Below the pieces are notes generated by a model. The model worked only from the letters and a program-made list of their open reading frames with translations, was not told the DNA's origin and did not search any database. A stretch of DNA of 64,000 nucleotides from NCBI RefSeq assembly GCF_013167455.1, contig NZ_CP038328.1; one strand, written 5' to 3'. A program made the position numbers and the translations under genes. Of the stretch, positions 7,430-43,126 are shown piece by piece. This DNA is from Escherichia coli O157:H7 (GTDB lineage Bacteria; Pseudomonadota; Gammaproteobacteria; Enterobacterales; Enterobacteriaceae). Positions within the stretch are counted from its first letter, which is position 1; each line of letters begins with the position of its first letter.

Positions 7430-7600
<171 letters not shown>

Positions 7601-10704: not shown

Positions 10705-10820
10705 GTATGGTTTGCCGGATGCGGTGCACCTGTAGGCCTGATAAGACGCATCAAGCGTCGCATCAGGCACTATGCTCAAATGCCGGATGCGGCGTGAACG
10801 CCTTATCCGGCCTACGCACA
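10705..10820. repeat. REP elements between yjgA and mpl
   Basis: GCCGGATGCGG...CCTTATCCGGCCTAC and GTAGGCCTGATAAGACGC...CGCATCAGGC motifs. Confidence 0.85.
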
Positions 10821-16959: not shown

Positions 16960-17075
16960 AGCGTGCTCCCAGTAGGCATGATAAGACGCGGTAAGCGTCG
17001 CATCAGGCTTCAGTGCACCATCGCCGGATGCGGCGCGAGCGCCTTATCCGGCCTACGAATCGGCATCAGGCATAG
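16960..17075. repeat. intercistronic REP elements between ytfQ and ytfR
   Basis: GTAGGCATGATAAGACGCG...CGCATCAGGC and GCCGGATGCGGCGCGAGCGCCTTATCCGGCCTAC motifs. Confidence 0.85.
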
Positions 17076-38450: not shown

Positions 38451-39071
38451 TTAGAGGATTTCCAGCAGTTCGACTTCAAACACCAGGGTGCTGAACGGAG
38501 GGATGGATGCGCCTGCGCCGCGCTCGCCATATGCCAGTTCCTGCGGGATAGTCAGTTCCCATTTAGAACCTACCGGCATCAGAGTCAGTGCTTCAATCCA
38601 GCCAGGGATCACGCCATTAACCGGAAATTCAGCGGGTTCACCACGAGCAACGGAGCTGTCAAACACGGTGCCGTCGATCAGTTTACCGGTGTAATGAACA
38701 CGAACGCGGTCGGTACGTGCCGGAATTGCGCCTTCACCCTGGTTGATCACGCGGAATTGCAGGCCAGATTCGGTGCTATTCACACCTTCTTTTTTGGCGT
38801 TTTCTTCCAGGTATTTCACACCTTCAGCAGCCATCGCCTGGAAACGCTGACGACGAACGGCATCGGCGCGCTCGTGGATTTCACGCAGCGCGCGATGCAC
38901 CACATCAACCGGAACAGCCGGATGTTTGCCTTCCAGCGCATCGGCAATACCTGCAACCAGTGCTTCTGGCAGCAGCCCTTCCAGGCCAGATTCACTCAGT
39001 TGTTGCCCTACCTGCAAACCAATGCCGTAGCTTGCTTGCGCTTCGATGGTGTCAAAAGTTGGGGTGGTCAT
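38451..39071 (-). CDS. fklB: FKBP-type peptidyl-prolyl cis-trans isomerase, 206 aa
   Basis: ORF-track 38451..39230 trimmed to the ATG giving [20 protein letters not shown]; FKBP domain at C-terminus. Confidence 0.93.
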
Positions 39072-39288
39072 CGTATTTCCTTTCTTAGGGTATAAAGTAG
39101 CGGGCAGCATATCAGCCACACTTCTTTGGGTAAAACTTTGTCGCGGGAATGATGACAAATCCCAGGGAAAAAGAAACAATAGCAATATCCCGTATGAATA
39201 TAATAAAGGCGGGTTTACCACGGACATCATAGCGTTAGCTTATTCATAGGCTATGATTGAGGAACAAGACGCGGAGCAGGAGGAAACC

Positions 39289-39927
39289 ATGCCCGGGCGC
39301 TTTGAACTAAAACCAACCCTGGAGAAAGTCTGGCACGCACCGGACAATTTTCGCTTCATGGACCCGCTGCCGCCGATGCATCGTCGGGGGATCATTATTG
39401 CCGCCATTGTATTGGTGGTCGGATTTCTGCTTCCATCTGATGATACGCCCAACGCGCCGGTGGTGACGCGTGAAGCGCAGTTAGATATTCAGTCGCAATC
39501 ACAACCGCCGACAGAAGAACAGCTGCGGGCGCAATTAGTCACCCCACAAAATTATCCTGATCAGGTGGCTCCGGTCGCTCCAGAACCTATACAGGAAGGC
39601 CAGCCAGAAGAACAGCCGAAAACTACCCAAACGCAACCATTCCAGCCAGATAGCGGAATTGATAATCAATGGCGCTCTTACCGTGTCGAACCCGGTAAAA
39701 CGATGGCGCAGCTGTTCCGCGACCACGGACTGCCCGCTACCGATGTCTATGCAATGGCGCAGGTAGAAGGCGCGGGTAAGCCGCTGAGTAATTTGCAAAA
39801 CGGGCAGATGGTGAAAATCCGCCAGAACGCCAGCGGCGTGGTGACGGGCTTAACCATTGATACGGGGAATAATCAACAGGTCCTGTTCACCCGCCAGCCG
39901 GATGGCAGTTTTATTCGTGCGCGGTAG
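39289..39927 (+). CDS. ytfB: OapA-domain cell-division protein YtfB, 212 aa
   Basis: ORF-track 39253..39927; start set to the ATG giving [16 protein letters not shown] preceded by AGGAGG RBS; TM segment, Pro/Gln-rich linker, C-terminal OapA-like domain. Confidence 0.88.
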
Positions 39928-40061
39928 ATGAAGGGTCAACCAAAAGCCAGCTAAGGATTGTCTCTTTGATGACCTTACGTCTGGCTTCCAGTGCCTGGGG
40001 TGAAACCATACTGATGTGTTGACATCCTCCAAGCCCTGAAGGACGTGGATCCCTGCTACGT

Positions 40062-41270
40062 TCAGGCTGTCGCCTGAATCATTTCGGTGGGTTCCTGCTT
40101 CAACGGGCGGCCTGACTGCACCATCTCCCCACAGGCAAGAACGGCGTGCCCCGCCGCTAAAATGTTACGAGCGCCATTTACATCAGCGTTCGCTGTATAT
40201 CCACATGCCTGGCATCTGAATTTACTTTGTGACAGGCGATTTTCTTTCGCTGTATGACCACAGCACGCGCAACGCTGGCTTGTGTACGCTGGCGGAACAG
40301 CAAGCACCTGACCGCCACGCCAGAGCTGCTTGTACTCAAGCTGGCGGCGCATTTCATACCAGCCCTGATCCAGTATCGAACGGTTTAAACCTGATTTTGC
40401 CCGGACATTGCGCCCCGGCTGGCTGACCGTACCCGCTGCTGACTTTGACATGTTGCTGACCTTCAAATCCTCAATGACTATCATTGCGTGGTTTTTGCTG
40501 ACGGTCGTTGTGACTTTGTGAAGGTAGTCCCTGCAGATATTTGCGATACAGGAATGCAGTCGCTGTATTTTGCGTTTCTGCTTCTGCCAGTTGTTGCTGA
40601 ATTTGACCTTGCGGCTTAACTGTCGCTGAAGTCTCGCCAGCGTCTTCTGGTTTTTCTGAAAACTGTTTACAGGTCCAAAGACTGTGCCATCTGACAGCGT
40701 GGCGAGTTTAGCCACGCCAGCATCCAGTCCGACCATTAATGCTGAAGGGTGAACCGGAGTTGATACTTCATTTTCAGTCTGAATACTGATGTACCACTTA
40801 CCGCAGGACTGGCTGGCAGTGACATTTTTCACAACACCCGTGACCTGACGGCTATTCCGGTAGCGCATCCAGCCAAGTTTCGGCAGAAAAATACGGCTGT
40901 TTTCCTGATCGAGCTTAACGCCCTGCGGGTAGCGGAATGCATCATTCTGTCCCCGCTTTTTGAATCGGGGAAAAGCAGCCCGCTTCCGGAAGAAGTTTTT
41001 GTAAGCCCGCTCAAGGTCTTTCAGTGACTGTTGCAATGGCTGTGACGGGGCATCTTTAAGCCATTGCGTTTCAGTGGCATTTTTCCACTCAACCAGCCAG
41101 GAAGCCATTTTCCCGTAAGGGATGTATTTATTACCGGCCTCATGATTCTCATTCTGAAGCGCCAGAGCACGATTGAAAACGAAACGACATGCGCCTGCGA
41201 AGCGCCTCATTTCACGCTCCTGTTGACCACCGGGTCTTAACTGGAATTTAAATGCCTGTAGTCGTTTCAC
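40062..41270 (-). CDS. tnpB: TnpB (IS605 OrfB family; putative RNA-guided endonuclease), 402 aa
   Basis: Full ORF; RuvC-I ([15 protein letters not shown]), RuvC-II ([11 protein letters not shown]), zinc finger CACCGH...CQACGY and RuvC-III ([11 protein letters not shown]) all present. Confidence 0.92.
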
Positions 41271-41277
41271 AGGCCAA

Positions 41278-41709
41278 ATGATACTTTGGTCTGTGAAAAA
41301 AGAAACCGATATCCGGCGTGGAAGGCATTGTGTTTTCCTGATGCATGTTCACCTGGTCTTTGTCACCAGATACCGACGCCAGATTTTTGACCATGACGCG
41401 ACAGAAAAACTACGCACTTACTTTTCAAAGGTATGTGCTGATTTTGAAGCTGAACTGGTTGAAATGGATGGCGAACCAGATCACGTCCATTTGTTAATTA
41501 ACTATCCTCCCAAACTGGCGATATCCAGTCTGGTAAACAGCCTCAAAGGCGTATCGGGTAGGTTACTGCGACGAGATCGACCAGATATTGCAGTCAGGTA
41601 TTACTACAAAGGCGTTTTGTGGAGTCCTGGCTATTTTGCCAGTAGCTGCGGAGGTGCGCCAATATCCGCCATCCGTCAATACATTGAACAACAGCAAACA
41701 CCTGGTTAG
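41278..41709 (+). CDS. tnpA: IS200/IS605-family Y1 (HUH) transposase TnpA, ~143 aa
   Basis: HUH motif (DHVHLL) and catalytic Tyr region (SPGYFASS); divergent from tnpB with start codons ~8 nt apart; true start may be a downstream Met. Confidence 0.9.
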
Positions 41710-41765
41710 GTGGAAAACCGCGCCGTATATCCCCGCCCTGAAGGACGGGGTTTTACGGCGCACCG

Positions 41766-41985
41766 GATAAACCAGGCCAAGCGTATGCTGGTTGATCAAA
41801 TAATATCCCCCAAGCGCAGCAATATTAATATTCACCTGCAATGGGTCGATATCTGGCTTAAAAATATTGTATTTCTTCCCTTCATCCAATAAGGATTCCA
41901 TTAACTGCAAGTGCGCATGGTTGATTTCTAAGAGACGCTGTGATTTTGCATAATGCACACCTTTACTTTGATTTTCACTATGCAC
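41766..41985 (-). pseudogene. ytfA: N-terminal portion of ytfA-like ORF, interrupted by the IS insertion
   Basis: Reverse-strand frame [36 protein letters not shown]... runs from a GTG into IS sequence; a matching C-terminal frame (...[32 protein letters not shown]) lies on the other side at ~39911-40010. Confidence 0.45.
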
Positions 41986-42331
41986 AATTTTTAAAAACCA
42001 GGGGTTAGCAATATAATAATCCCATGTAAAATCAATAATTTTCTCAATGGCTTTTTGTGGCTGGTTAACCTGCTGATTAACGAATACACCGATACCGACA
42101 GCGTAGAATAATTACATACCGCACAACAAGAATGTACGGTGTAAGGCGTGGAAGTCATTTTCTCCCCGGGTGCATCGTTATATCCATAATGAGCGATTTT
42201 TGATATTAATATCTTTCACCATCCGCTATTTTCACCACTTCAGAAAACAAACTTATTTTTATTAATATCGATTTTTTTCTGTGAACATTCAGCTGCGATA
42301 TTTATAAAAACATTAAACAGGTCACATTACA

Positions 42332-43126
42332 ATGACATTACCAACCACTATTTATTCATTTCCTGCATATTTATCTCGTTTTTCGTCCACCGACAAACCA
42401 GTAAAATTAAAATTTCATCAATACGCACGCGCTACATTACTTTCAAATCGTGGAAGAGATCATAATTGCGATGGCAGACGTACTGTTGAGATCCACAAAC
42501 TAGATCTCTCAGACTGGCAAGCATTCAATAAGTTAGCAACGAAGTGTAATGCTTACGATGGAGTAACAATGAATGGTGATAATTCTTTTGGATGGAACCA
42601 TGAAGCTACATTAGATAATATTCACGCCCAGAAATACAATAAAGCTTACGCGGGTGCGAGGTTAACCGCAGAACTGAAATATTTATTGCAAGATGTCGAA
42701 TCCTTCGAACCCAACAGTAAATACACAATACACGAAGTGGTTTTGGGACCTGGTTATGGTACTCCAGACTATACCGGCCAAACGATAGGATACGTTGTAA
42801 CCCTTCCTGCCCAAATGCCTAATTGCTGGTCATCTGAACTACCAACAATCGATCTTTATATCGACCAACTTCGCACTGTTACAGGCGTTTCTAATGCCCT
42901 CGGATTCATCATTGCTGCATTGCTAAACGCGTATTCTGATTTACCCCATGATTTGAAAATTGGTCTGCGTTCCTTATCAAGTTCAGCCGCAATCTACTCG
43001 GGTTTGGGTTTCGAGCGAGTGCCGCAGGAGCGAGACATCAGTTGCGCTCGTATGTATCTAACGCCAGCAAACCATCCTGACTTATGGACACAAGAGAATG
43101 GTGAATGGATCTACTTGCGAAACTAA
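42332..43126 (+). CDS. yjfZ: uncharacterized protein YjfZ, 264 aa; AT-rich orphan
   Basis: Full ORF with AT-rich sequence and long AT-rich upstream region; no recognisable domain by eye. Confidence 0.85.
   Translation: MTLPTTIYSFPAYLSRFSSTDKPVKLKFHQYARATLLSNRGRDHNCDGRRTVEIHKLDLSDWQAFNKLATKCNAYDGVTMNGDNSFGWNHEATLDNIHAQKYNKAYAGARLTAELKYLLQDVESFEPNSKYTIHEVVLGPGYGTPDYTGQTIGYVVTLPAQMPNCWSSELPTIDLYIDQLRTVTGVSNALGFIIAALLNAYSDLPHDLKIGLRSLSSSAAIYSGLGFERVPQERDISCARMYLTPANHPDLWTQENGEWIYLRN

Follow-up and report, generated by a model that had tools for sequence, protein, structure and literature searches.

Does the gene pair between ytfB and yjfZ in Escherichia coli O157:H7 belong to a complete transposon with an RNA-guided nuclease, and is that transposon still at work? 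The locus was studied in a 64,000-nucleotide stretch of DNA (the window), which was 100% identical to E. coli O157:H7 Sakai/EDL933. An earlier note had placed an IS200/IS605-family insertion with an apparently intact TnpB there. The element at 40019-41766 is IS609, which is already known and catalogued, and it is annotated at exactly these coordinates in the Sakai reference genome. It is very likely a complete IS609 within the O157:H7 ytfA pseudogene, with a presumed mechanism of the IS608/ISDra2 type and with an insertion that is old and vertically inherited.

Identity and insertion site of the element

The complete copy contained 1748 bp. It lies on the minus strand, and the top strand of the element is the window minus strand. 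It was identified from the Sakai repeat_region ("IS609 Family: IS200/IS605"), the alignment with the empty MG1655 site, and an ungapped match to the MG1655 copy annotated as IS609. DNA identity to that copy was 97.65% without gaps; the ISfinder convention for the same element is at least 95%. RefSeq labels the two genes "IS609 family transposase" and "RNA-guided endonuclease InsQ/TnpB."

The element splits ytfA, a TetR/AcrR-like pseudogene. The upstream fragment (41767-42060, minus strand) is labeled "TetR/AcrR family transcriptional regulator, incomplete" in the EDL933 RefSeq annotation. The downstream fragment (39911-40018, minus strand), identified from EDL933 RefSeq and the empty-site alignment, overlaps the 3' end of ytfB. 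In MG1655, ytfA is a contiguous, uninterrupted 402-bp pseudogene. The position between ytfB and yjfZ given in the earlier note was correct but imprecise. Its statement that MG1655 has no IS at this site agreed with the aligned MG1655 allele. It had also called the element the only clearly mobile DNA in the window, and the Sakai annotation of window positions 14001-64000 contained no second repeat_region.

The exact ends were set by two sources, the Sakai repeat_region annotation and the alignment with the uninterrupted MG1655 site. A 1-nt ambiguity arises because a G is common to both sides of the junction. The interval 40019-41766 was chosen over the 1-nt alternative because of the published IS609 TTAT/TCAA cleavage sites and the second copy in MG1655. 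The ends first proposed, 40015 and 41770, gave the right place but not the exact boundaries.

The target and transposon-adjacent motif (TAM) is TTAT at 41767-41770 on the minus strand, or TTTAT counting the preceding T. It was assigned from the flanks and the published site, and it abuts the left end on its 5' side on the element strand. The 5' flank reads ...GGTTTAT followed by CCGGTGCG in the window copy and ...CTTTTTAT followed by CCGGTGCG at the MG1655 copy. TTAT 5' of the left end and the TCAA terminus were found at both independent E. coli sites. No target duplication was seen between the empty MG1655 site and the occupied window site. Comparison with an IS-free allele, which had been suggested for deducing the adjacent motif, gave TTAT at the left end, a TCAA terminus, and no duplication. 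Published IS609 cleavage sites are TTAT on the left and TCAA on the right (PMC6906374). TTAT was also the TAM chosen for an "IS609" TnpB in a further paper (PMC12781874).

Both ends carry subterminal imperfect palindromes that lie on the same strand and fold as hairpins. There are no terminal inverted repeats. The left end (41720-41766, minus strand) contains CCCCGTCC-TTCA-GGGCGGGG at 41731-41750 inside a longer hairpin at 41720-41761 (inverted repeat I1). Its DNA fold had an energy of -22.2 kcal/mol (z = -4.3). The core hairpin sequence of the left end is repeated at the right end (direct repeat D3). The right end (40019-40049, minus strand) contains CCACGTCC-TTCA-GGGCTTGG, then AGGATG, and then the cleavage site TCAA (40019-40022). 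All 13 of 13 aligned relatives shared the right terminus GGAGGATG(T/C)CAA and diverged directly after it. The aligned relatives have the common end GGAGGATGTCAA, after which their sequences part.

The right-end hairpin has one lineage-specific change. Position 40032 is A on the plus strand in O157, which gives a C.T or C.U mismatch. MG1655 and the three same-site copies compared from other lineages, four E. coli copies in all, have C there on the plus strand. A standard pair was kept at this position in every other aligned relative.

Transposase and nuclease genes

(a) tnpA. The gene lies at 41278-41709 on the plus strand and encodes an intact Y1 HUH single-strand DNA transposase of 143 amino acids. 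It was assigned by its open reading frame, profile, and structure alignment. TnpA scored 145.7 bits against NF033573 (cutoff, 55). Its alignment to solved IS200/IS605 transposases was full length and matched HVH to the HUH motif and the Y of RQYIEQ to the catalytic Tyr. The gene is divergent from tnpB, and the two start codons are 7 nt apart. A palindrome over both start codons was considered as a conserved translational control element and was ruled out, as it is not conserved in a Providencia copy.

(b) tnpB (insQ). The gene lies at 40062-41270 on the minus strand. It encodes a predicted RNA-guided RuvC nuclease of 402 amino acids, assigned by the same three kinds of evidence. The divergent arrangement of a Y1/HUH tnpA and a tnpB had been read from the DNA correctly. 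TnpB scored 378.8 bits against NF040570 (cutoff, 100). It contains the Pfam domains HTH_OrfB_IS605 (PF12323), OrfB_IS605 (PF01385), and Cas12f1-like TNB (PF07282). These domains and the two profile scores above cutoff agree with the proposed IS200/IS605 family. TnpB fell below the narrower "exception" model NF038281 (298.5; cutoff, 425), which places it outside that subgroup. The start codon of tnpB is GTG here and ATG in plasmid relatives.

The three RuvC motifs are GLDAG at 181 (D183), IEDL at 266 (E267), and ADVNG at 362 (D363). The zinc finger consists of the CxxC pairs C334/C337 and C353/C356. In the PDB alignment (8h1j/8exa; E = 1e-52), D183/E267/D363 fall on ISDra2 D191/E278/D361. The claim that all three motifs and the CxxC...CxxC finger are retained was upheld by this triad and both cysteine pairs. 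TnpB had also been called apparently intact and not obviously decayed, and it is full length with catalytic residues unchanged relative to ISDra2. The dN/dS ratio of tnpB lay between 0.21 (MG1655) and 0.24 for comparisons within E. coli and was 0.075 for a Klebsiella plasmid copy. These ratios indicate purifying selection acting on TnpB.

A scan for promoters and terminators returned 3 promoter-like sites (1.9 expected by chance) and placed none for tnpA, tnpB, or a separate RNA. A literature search for insQ together with TnpB retrieved nothing relevant. A 94%-identical "IS609" TnpB has been purified and tested with a TTAT TAM; the main text gives no separate result for that protein (PMC12781874).

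Predicted guide RNA

(a) Scaffold. An omega-RNA (guide RNA) scaffold of about 138 nt is predicted at 40019-40156 on the minus strand, from covariation and reduced dS. It spans the last 31 tnpB codons and the right end. It contains stem A (40142-40156), an invariant CCUGU/GCAGG helix (40131-40135 with 40094-40098), stem B (40105-40127), a short 2-bp helix (40086-40087 with 40052-40053), stem C (40058-40082), and a terminal hairpin (40028-40049), all on the minus strand. In a 29-sequence alignment, four of these helices showed compensatory changes. In that alignment 97% of cells were paired (38 to 54% with slid partners), and 21 of 38 pairs had changes on both sides (4 to 10 when slid). The observed covariation values were reached in 0 of 500 shuffles. 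The window sequence forms 36 of the 38 consensus pairs. An A.C mismatch in stem B is common to the O157 and K-12 copies.

The overlapping codons point the same way. The dS was 0.32 in the last 96 nt of tnpB and 1.76 upstream, an approximately 5-fold depression of synonymous change in the overlap. The earlier note had assigned the guide-RNA scaffold to the tnpB 3' end and adjoining element end by analogy, and both the covariation across relatives and the low synonymous change bear this out. In 82 of 120 loci from many phyla, the 3' motif of the scaffold followed a TnpB homologue at a median distance of 72 nt and was invariably on the strand of that homologue. Derivatives of the element without genes retain at least its last ~100 nt (L014) or ~135 nt (L013). 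Together, these comparisons support a structured guide-RNA scaffold at the tnpB 3' end and right end that would be common to TnpB elements of many phyla.

The sequences for covariation were gathered with a 22-nt pattern from the window element. As a result, two short helices and the single-stranded blocks that are conserved show no variation and are uninformative either way. For the same reason, a covariance model from nonenterobacterial sequences was set aside as an independent membership test, since a match to it would be partly circular. Neither an omega-RNA family nor an IS605-associated RNA family of Rfam matched the element (39000-43000 at E ≤ 1; whole window at gathering thresholds). 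As Rfam has no model, the RNA call rests on our own alignment. With a MAFFT alignment of 58 sequences (A1), RNAalifold recovered the terminal hairpin alone; A1 was too gappy because loop lengths vary. It was replaced by A2, the 29-sequence subset of A1 with one architecture. A single-sequence fold of the 248-nt 3' region (z = -2.3) differed from the consensus and was not used as evidence. In ISDra2, a pseudoknot joins the 3' end of the scaffold to an upstream loop. A search of the IS609 scaffold for such a partner of the 3' UGUCAA gave none that was convincing; both candidate regions are invariant in the sample and so carry no covariation signal.

(b) Guide. The predicted guide is 16 nt (CACATCAGTATGGTTT; 40003-40018, minus strand). 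It would consist of flanking ytfA-remnant DNA, transcribed by readthrough past the right end. This assignment follows the ISDra2 model, in which a scaffold precedes a 16-nt guide (PMC10097598; PMC8612924). The empty MG1655 allele reads TTTAT followed by CACATCAGTATGGTTTCACC, which is a TAM and a perfect target for the predicted guide.

Other copies in E. coli and plasmids

(a) The ytfA site. An insertion with the same junction was found in 1743 of 5426 complete E. coli genomes, from several lineages; two-thirds of the genomes are without it. Same-site copies were ~1 to 2% apart among sampled lineages. The three that we inspected from other lineages were decayed, with an 11-bp deletion, an IS1203 insertion, or a tnpA frameshift. 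To judge from these lesions, the decay in other lineages is independent. The O157 copy keeps both genes intact, unlike these three and unlike the K-12 copy. IS609-like sequence covering at least 80% of the element was found in 4858 of the 5426 genomes. Only 2 places in O157 genomes match the element.

(b) MG1655 IS609. This copy (insQ b1432, yncK) also contained 1748 bp, with the same ends, TTAT flank, and TCAA terminus. It lies at another chromosomal site, between ydcL and ydcO, and not in ytfA. Its TnpB is 402 amino acids long and differs from the window TnpB by 13 substitutions. Its tnpA (yncK) has an in-frame stop, whereas the tnpA of the O157 ytfA copy is intact. On the element strand, it has G in the right-end hairpin where the O157 copy has T (window 40032). 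K-12 IS609, whose tnpA is dead, did not transpose in mutation-accumulation lines.

(c) Plasmid copies. Related copies were found on more than 2000 plasmids of several genera, a spread which implies that the family has moved recently. Among copies on enterobacterial plasmids and P1-like phage-plasmids, right ends were 81 to 98% identical to that of the window copy, and the terminus and RNA helices were the same. Of the plasmid copies inspected, several lack an annotated tnpA next to tnpB, or are miniature elements or derivatives with deletions (L011, L013, and L014), and the start codon of their tnpB is ATG. A published study describes IS609 in P1-like elements and gives the same cleavage sites (PMC6906374).

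Proposed mechanism and alternatives

TnpA would excise and insert the top strand (window minus strand) as a single-stranded circle, as in the IS608 and ISDra2 mechanisms. It would cleave after TTAT and after TCAA. The GC skew is negative on the window plus strand; the element top strand is therefore on the lagging-strand template. The tnpB transcript would be processed to an omega-RNA made of the scaffold (40019-40156) and the 16-nt flank guide. TnpB with this RNA would cut any copy of the site that lacks or has lost the element (TTAT and then CACATCAGTATGGTTT, as in K-12). Repair off the occupied sister copy would then restore the element. The O157 copy looks to be among the versions that are still functional, and it probably moves rarely or never. 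Recognition by TnpA or folding of the RNA could be weaker because of the mismatch at 40032 or the A.C mismatch in stem B.

How much of this machinery still runs in O157:H7 may be read in several ways. It is conceivable, though on balance improbable, that O157 IS609 is a live homing system that cuts the uninterrupted ytfA allele (about two-thirds of E. coli), with the 40032 change locking the element in place and the nuclease arm working. Another reading, which we also consider rather unlikely, is an immobile relic: IS609 by descent, with transposon and nuclease functions both lost in O157:H7 and the reading frames intact for lack of time to decay. The insertion is indeed fixed at one site common to the 1743 genomes, and O157 genomes have only the 2 matching places. 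Decay at the same site elsewhere, the immobile K-12 copy with its dead tnpA, and the O157-specific mismatch in the right-end hairpin also agree with a relic. Against it, the dN/dS values between E. coli copies (0.21 to 0.24) and against plasmid relatives (0.075) suggest continuing purifying selection on TnpB. The two reading frames are intact, as are the hairpin and cleavage site of each end, and the family appears to have moved recently among plasmids.

TnpB might instead be kept for a host or regulatory role, as an RNA-guided repressor or TnpA modulator, and not for homing. Roles of this kind were proposed for ISDra2 TnpB before 2021 and have been shown for the nuclease-dead TldR relatives. 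Domesticated TnpB regulators reportedly exist, K-12 insQ is intact despite its pseudogene tnpA, and most complete E. coli genomes (the 4858 above) carry IS609-like sequence. We nevertheless judge such a role very improbable. Domesticated TnpB regulators typically lack the RuvC triad and zinc finger, both of which are intact here. The guide position is ordinary pseudogene flank and not a promoter, and both transposon ends and an intact tnpA are kept. A further reading concerns history alone and does not bear on the identity of the element. The occupied state could be ancestral, and the polymorphism would then reflect precise excision in K-12-type lineages and not insertion in O157-type lineages. 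Excision of IS200/IS605 elements is precise and scarless, so an empty allele looks the same as one never occupied, and the empty MG1655 allele is compatible with this history. The ~1 to 2% distance between same-site copies likewise fits an old insertion. Ancestral occupancy is nonetheless unlikely, with two-thirds of genomes lacking the insertion. An old, vertically inherited IS609 that is complete in O157:H7 is the reading that we prefer.

The locus carries little weight as a discovery: IS609 is catalogued, the annotation of the reference O157:H7 genome includes this copy, and RefSeq names its TnpB an RNA-guided endonuclease. The analysis adds the base-exact ends, the TAM, and the predicted guide of the O157 ytfA copy. 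It adds a covariation-backed secondary structure for an IS609-type guide-RNA scaffold that occurs in many phyla and has no Rfam family. It also adds a copy with both genes intact, set against those of K-12 and the three same-site copies, and a concrete target sequence that bears on endogenous TnpB activity in E. coli. If live homing were true, the element would work as a gene drive that occurs naturally in the chromosome, or would hinder the entry of DNA from unoccupied strains into occupied ones.

Comparison with characterized elements

(a) ISDra2. The IS609 TnpB aligned with that of ISDra2 from Deinococcus radiodurans (PDB 8H1J/8EXA) over residues 3 to 376, and the D-E-D triad and zinc finger are shared. 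The ISDra2 omega-RNA resembles the IS609 scaffold in its similar size, its several stems, and its overlap with the tnpB 3' end. Both have a terminal hairpin with a U-rich tetraloop just 5' of the guide. The loop is UUCA in IS609 and UUUA in most relatives and in ISDra2. The TAM is TTGAT in ISDra2 and TTAT in IS609. Unlike ISDra2, IS609 has tnpA divergent from tnpB. Stem A of its scaffold is an additional covarying hairpin on the 5' side, and stem B is a short hairpin at the place of the ISDra2 stem-1 loop.

(b) IS608, IS605, and IS606. These Helicobacter pylori elements share a Y1 HUH TnpA with IS609, which matched the ISHp608 transposase at E = 7e-19. Like IS609, they have subterminal imperfect palindromes, insert 3' of a tetranucleotide with no duplication, and finish in TCAA on the right. 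The divergent tnpA/tnpB layout is that of IS605 and IS606. The DNA sequences of IS609 and the H. pylori elements are unrelated, and the target is TTAT in IS609 and TTAC in IS608. In IS609, unlike the H. pylori reference elements, a longer hairpin of 42 nt encloses the one at the left end.

Identity and boundaries of the element

The insertion is almost certainly IS609. The earlier note had described an IS200/IS605-family element with an apparently intact TnpB at about 40015-41770, between ytfB and yjfZ. That interpretation was correct: a 402-aa ORF and a divergent 143-aa ORF are present with the motifs it quoted. The element was, however, already catalogued. In a megablast search of all complete E. 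coli genomes, 40000-41800 aligned from one end to the other at 100% with O157:H7 strains, Sakai and EDL933 among them. The annotated features that it overlaps there carry the names "IS200/IS605-like element IS609 family transposase" and "RNA-guided endonuclease InsQ/TnpB family protein." The Sakai repeat_region "IS609 Family: IS200/IS605" falls at 40019-41766 on the minus strand. These names and this repeat_region show that the element had been named and annotated here before, and the finding is known. The EDL933 RefSeq annotation contains a TetR/AcrR-family pseudogene in two fragments, one on each side of the element. In MG1655, the ytfA pseudogene (402 bp) is uninterrupted between yjfZ and ytfB, with no IS at that site.

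MG1655 ytfA was aligned to the window. The flanks adjoin with no duplication, and the window matches to 40018 and resumes at 41766. The inserted DNA is 1747-1748 bp, with one G shared at the junction of this empty-site alignment. On the element strand (window minus), the left junction consists of flanking GGTTTAT followed by CCGGTGCGCC, and the right junction consists of GGAGGATGTCAA followed by flanking CACATCAGTATGG. The MG1655 copy of IS609 is located between ydcL and ydcO. It is 1748 bp and 97.65% identical to the window copy, without gaps. TTAT precedes its left end (flanking CTTTTTAT, then CCGGTGCG), and its terminus is TCAA. The cleavage sites of both copies are those published for IS609 in a P1-like plasmid, TTAT on the left and TCAA on the right (PMC6906374). 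All 13 related copies, from E. coli, Klebsiella, Salmonella, Providencia, and Moellerella, end in GGAGGATG(T/C)CAA. The right boundary is confirmed because these copies diverge directly after (T/C)CAA.

The subterminal hairpin core is CCCCGTCC-TTCA-GGGCGGGG at the left end and CCACGTCC-TTCA-GGGCTTGG on the same strand at the right end (direct repeat D3, inverted repeat I1). The left-end hairpin is nested within a 42-nt hairpin (predicted fold, -22.2 kcal/mol; z = -4.3). This is the IS200/IS605 arrangement, with one-strand hairpins and without terminal inverted repeats. The four bases 5' of the hairpin are AAAA on the left and GGAT on the right, where most relatives contain GAAT. In IS608, the four bases at this position reportedly pair with the cleavage sites, as Barabas et al. 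are said to have described in 2008. By analogy, AAAA and GGAT would pair with TTAT and TCAA. GC skew is negative over the entire plus strand of the window. By composition, then, the top strand of the element is of the leading-strand type, which puts it on the lagging-strand template. That orientation is reportedly the one favoured by the IS200/IS605 family (attributed to Ton-Hoang et al., 2010).

Transposase and TnpB genes

The tnpB gene (40062-41270, minus strand) encodes 402 aa from a GTG start, and tnpA (41278-41709, plus strand) encodes 143 aa. They are divergent, with 7 nt separating the start codons. Against the IS200/IS605 transposase equivalog, TnpA reached 145.7 bits (cutoff, 55). Its whole length aligned to IS200/IS605 transposases of known structure; HVH falls on the HUH motif, and the Y of RQYIEQ falls on the catalytic tyrosine. 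The K-12 tnpA contains an in-frame stop that is absent from the window copy.

TnpB scored 378.8 bits on NF040570 (cutoff, 100). It contains HTH_OrfB_IS605, OrfB_IS605, and Cas12f1-like TNB domains. The motifs GLDAG, IEDL, and ADVNG start at residues 181, 266, and 362, and C334/C337 and C353/C356 form the two cysteine pairs. Residues 3-376 aligned with ISDra2 TnpB (8H1J, 8EXA; E = 1e-52), placing D183, E267, and D363 on the ISDra2 catalytic residues. The tnpB dN/dS was 0.21 against K-12, 0.24 against a same-site copy from another lineage, and 0.075 against a Klebsiella plasmid relative. By these comparisons, tnpB has been under purifying selection.

The tnpB start (41268-41270) is GTG in chromosomal E. 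coli IS609 copies and ATG in plasmid relatives (L006, L008, L010). The GTG start suggests that the chromosomal copies are translated at a lower level. A 14-bp palindrome (41265-41298) lies over both start codons (tnpB GTG at 41270, tnpA ATG at 41278). It is retained in K-12 via a G.U change and is not conserved in the Providencia relative. In tnpA-sense RNA its fold is -20.3 kcal/mol (z = -4.3). It is a possible translational control element, because the modelled fold covers the AGG upstream of the tnpA ATG.

Predicted guide-RNA scaffold

No Rfam 15 family matched the scaffold. Relatives were gathered from one genome per species by a scan for GAAGCAGGAA-N(50-80)-GGAGGATGTCAA, two blocks conserved among enterobacterial copies. 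The scan retrieved at least 120 loci from Proteobacteria, Actinobacteria, Cyanobacteria, Bacillota, Chlamydiota, Planctomycetota, and others. Among the matches listed, a TnpB homologue was directly upstream in 82 of 120 loci, always on the same strand, with a median of 72 nt from its end to TCAA. Of the listed loci, 71 had 1400 nt or more of sequence upstream, and the homologue was present in 56 of these. Also among the matches listed, tnpA was found in 29 loci and was divergent in 28. Because the homologue lies upstream at a constant strand and position, the motif identifies the 3' terminus of a broad IS609/IS605-type clade. Both blocks are exact in TnpB elements (L016-L135) of phyla as far off as those of Streptomyces, cyanobacteria, Chlamydiota, Bacillota, Planctomycetota, and Gracilibacteria.

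The last 140 nt of 29 element 3' ends were aligned (A2). A consensus structure was obtained with RNAalifold and tested by pair counts. Standard pairs made up 97.0% of cells, against 38-54% when the 3' partners were slid by 1-3 columns. Both sides had changed in 21 of 38 pairs, compared with 4-10 in the slid controls. In 500 shuffles, no observed measure was ever reached. The covariation resides in four helices: stem A (40142-40156; both sides changed in 5/5 pairs), stem B (40105-40127; 4/7), stem C (40058-40082; 7/8), and the terminal hairpin (40028-40049; 5/9). Three others are uninformative for covariation, namely an invariant CCUGU/GCAGG helix and two 2-bp helices with one-side variation or none. 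G.U pairs are common; at one position, for example, 16 sequences have U.G and 11 have C-G. This is what pairing in RNA, not in DNA, would predict.

The synonymous rate against the Klebsiella copy was 0.32 in the last 96 nt of tnpB (window 40065-40156) and 1.76 in the remainder, about a fivefold difference. This fits dual coding and RNA constraint. Gene-less derivatives retain the 3' part of the element. L014 has about the last 100 nt joined to a left end, and L013 has a solitary stretch of about 135-140 nt. The low synonymous rate and this retention support a functional RNA. From sequence, the TnpB-RNA arm is likely functional.

By cryo-EM, the ISDra2 omega-RNA (guide RNA) has a 116-nt scaffold with four stems and a pseudoknot, and a UUUA tetraloop closes its final stem a few bases ahead of a 16-nt guide (PMC10097598). 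The IS609 scaffold has a similar layout. Its terminal hairpin cap is UUCA here and UUUA in most relatives. An ISDra2-type pseudoknot was not identified in the IS609 scaffold.

Predicted guide and target

On the ISDra2 model, the predicted guide is the 16 nt past the right end, CACATCAGTATGGTTT (40003-40018, minus strand). Because TTTAT and then exactly CACATCAGTATGGTTT occur in the empty K-12 allele, that allele is the predicted substrate. TnpB would act on this K-12-type allele as in the homing and retention model (PMC8612924; 10.1101/2023.03.14.532601).

Copies across E. coli

The ytfB-side junction was found in 1743 of 5426 complete genomes, including O157:H7, O111:H8, and unrelated isolates. 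The K-12-type ydcL junction was found in 3267 genomes. Both genes are intact in the O157 copy. The ytfA-site copies of three other lineages (L136, L137, L138) are all damaged. One contains an 11-bp tnpB deletion and a truncated tnpA, another has IS1203 inside the element, and the last has a tnpA frameshift. Their decay is independent. The flank that would serve as guide differs by one base in two of the three (CATATCAG versus CACATCAG).

Position 40032 is A on the plus strand, specific to O157:H7, and C in all four of the E. coli IS609 copies with which it was compared. The change converts a conserved right-end hairpin C-G pair to a C.T (DNA) or C.U (RNA) mismatch. Every other relative in the 29-sequence alignment has a standard pair there. 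The mismatch may influence how TnpA recognises the right end or how the guide RNA folds. No IS609 transposition was reported in K-12 mutation-accumulation lines (PMC5009759), which fits the dead K-12 tnpA. It is doubtful that the element still transposes.

Plasmid relatives and other observations

The L013 fragment (1148-1286; E. coli IncY P1-like plasmid NZ_CP080373.1) is about 140 nt. It matches the IS609 right end and scaffold at 78% identity and ends in GGAGGATGCCAA. It lies between a repA iteron region and a parA-like ATPase gene, and there is no tnpB close by. The fragment may be an isolated right end or an orphan guide RNA. L014 (about 1700-1907; Moellerella plasmid NZ_CP093251.1) is a miniature element in which left-end-like sequence meets the right end. 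L011 (1766-2077; Klebsiella plasmid) has a left end joined to the last ~280 nt of tnpB. Both are gene-less or internally deleted derivatives. L012 (846-3841; Klebsiella plasmid NZ_MW911671.1) contains a tandem pair of TnpB genes with tnpA between them. It may represent adjacent or nested IS200/IS605-type elements.

The GC content was 0.356 at 42000-42500 (upstream and 5' region of yjfZ), against about 0.51 for the window, and GC skew there was strongly negative. REP-associated tyrosine transposases, which are related to IS200/IS605 TnpA, are proposed to mobilise REP-type repeats. Rfam naRNA4, which we take to represent such repeats, matched at 7436-7506, 10735-10812, and 16975-17053.
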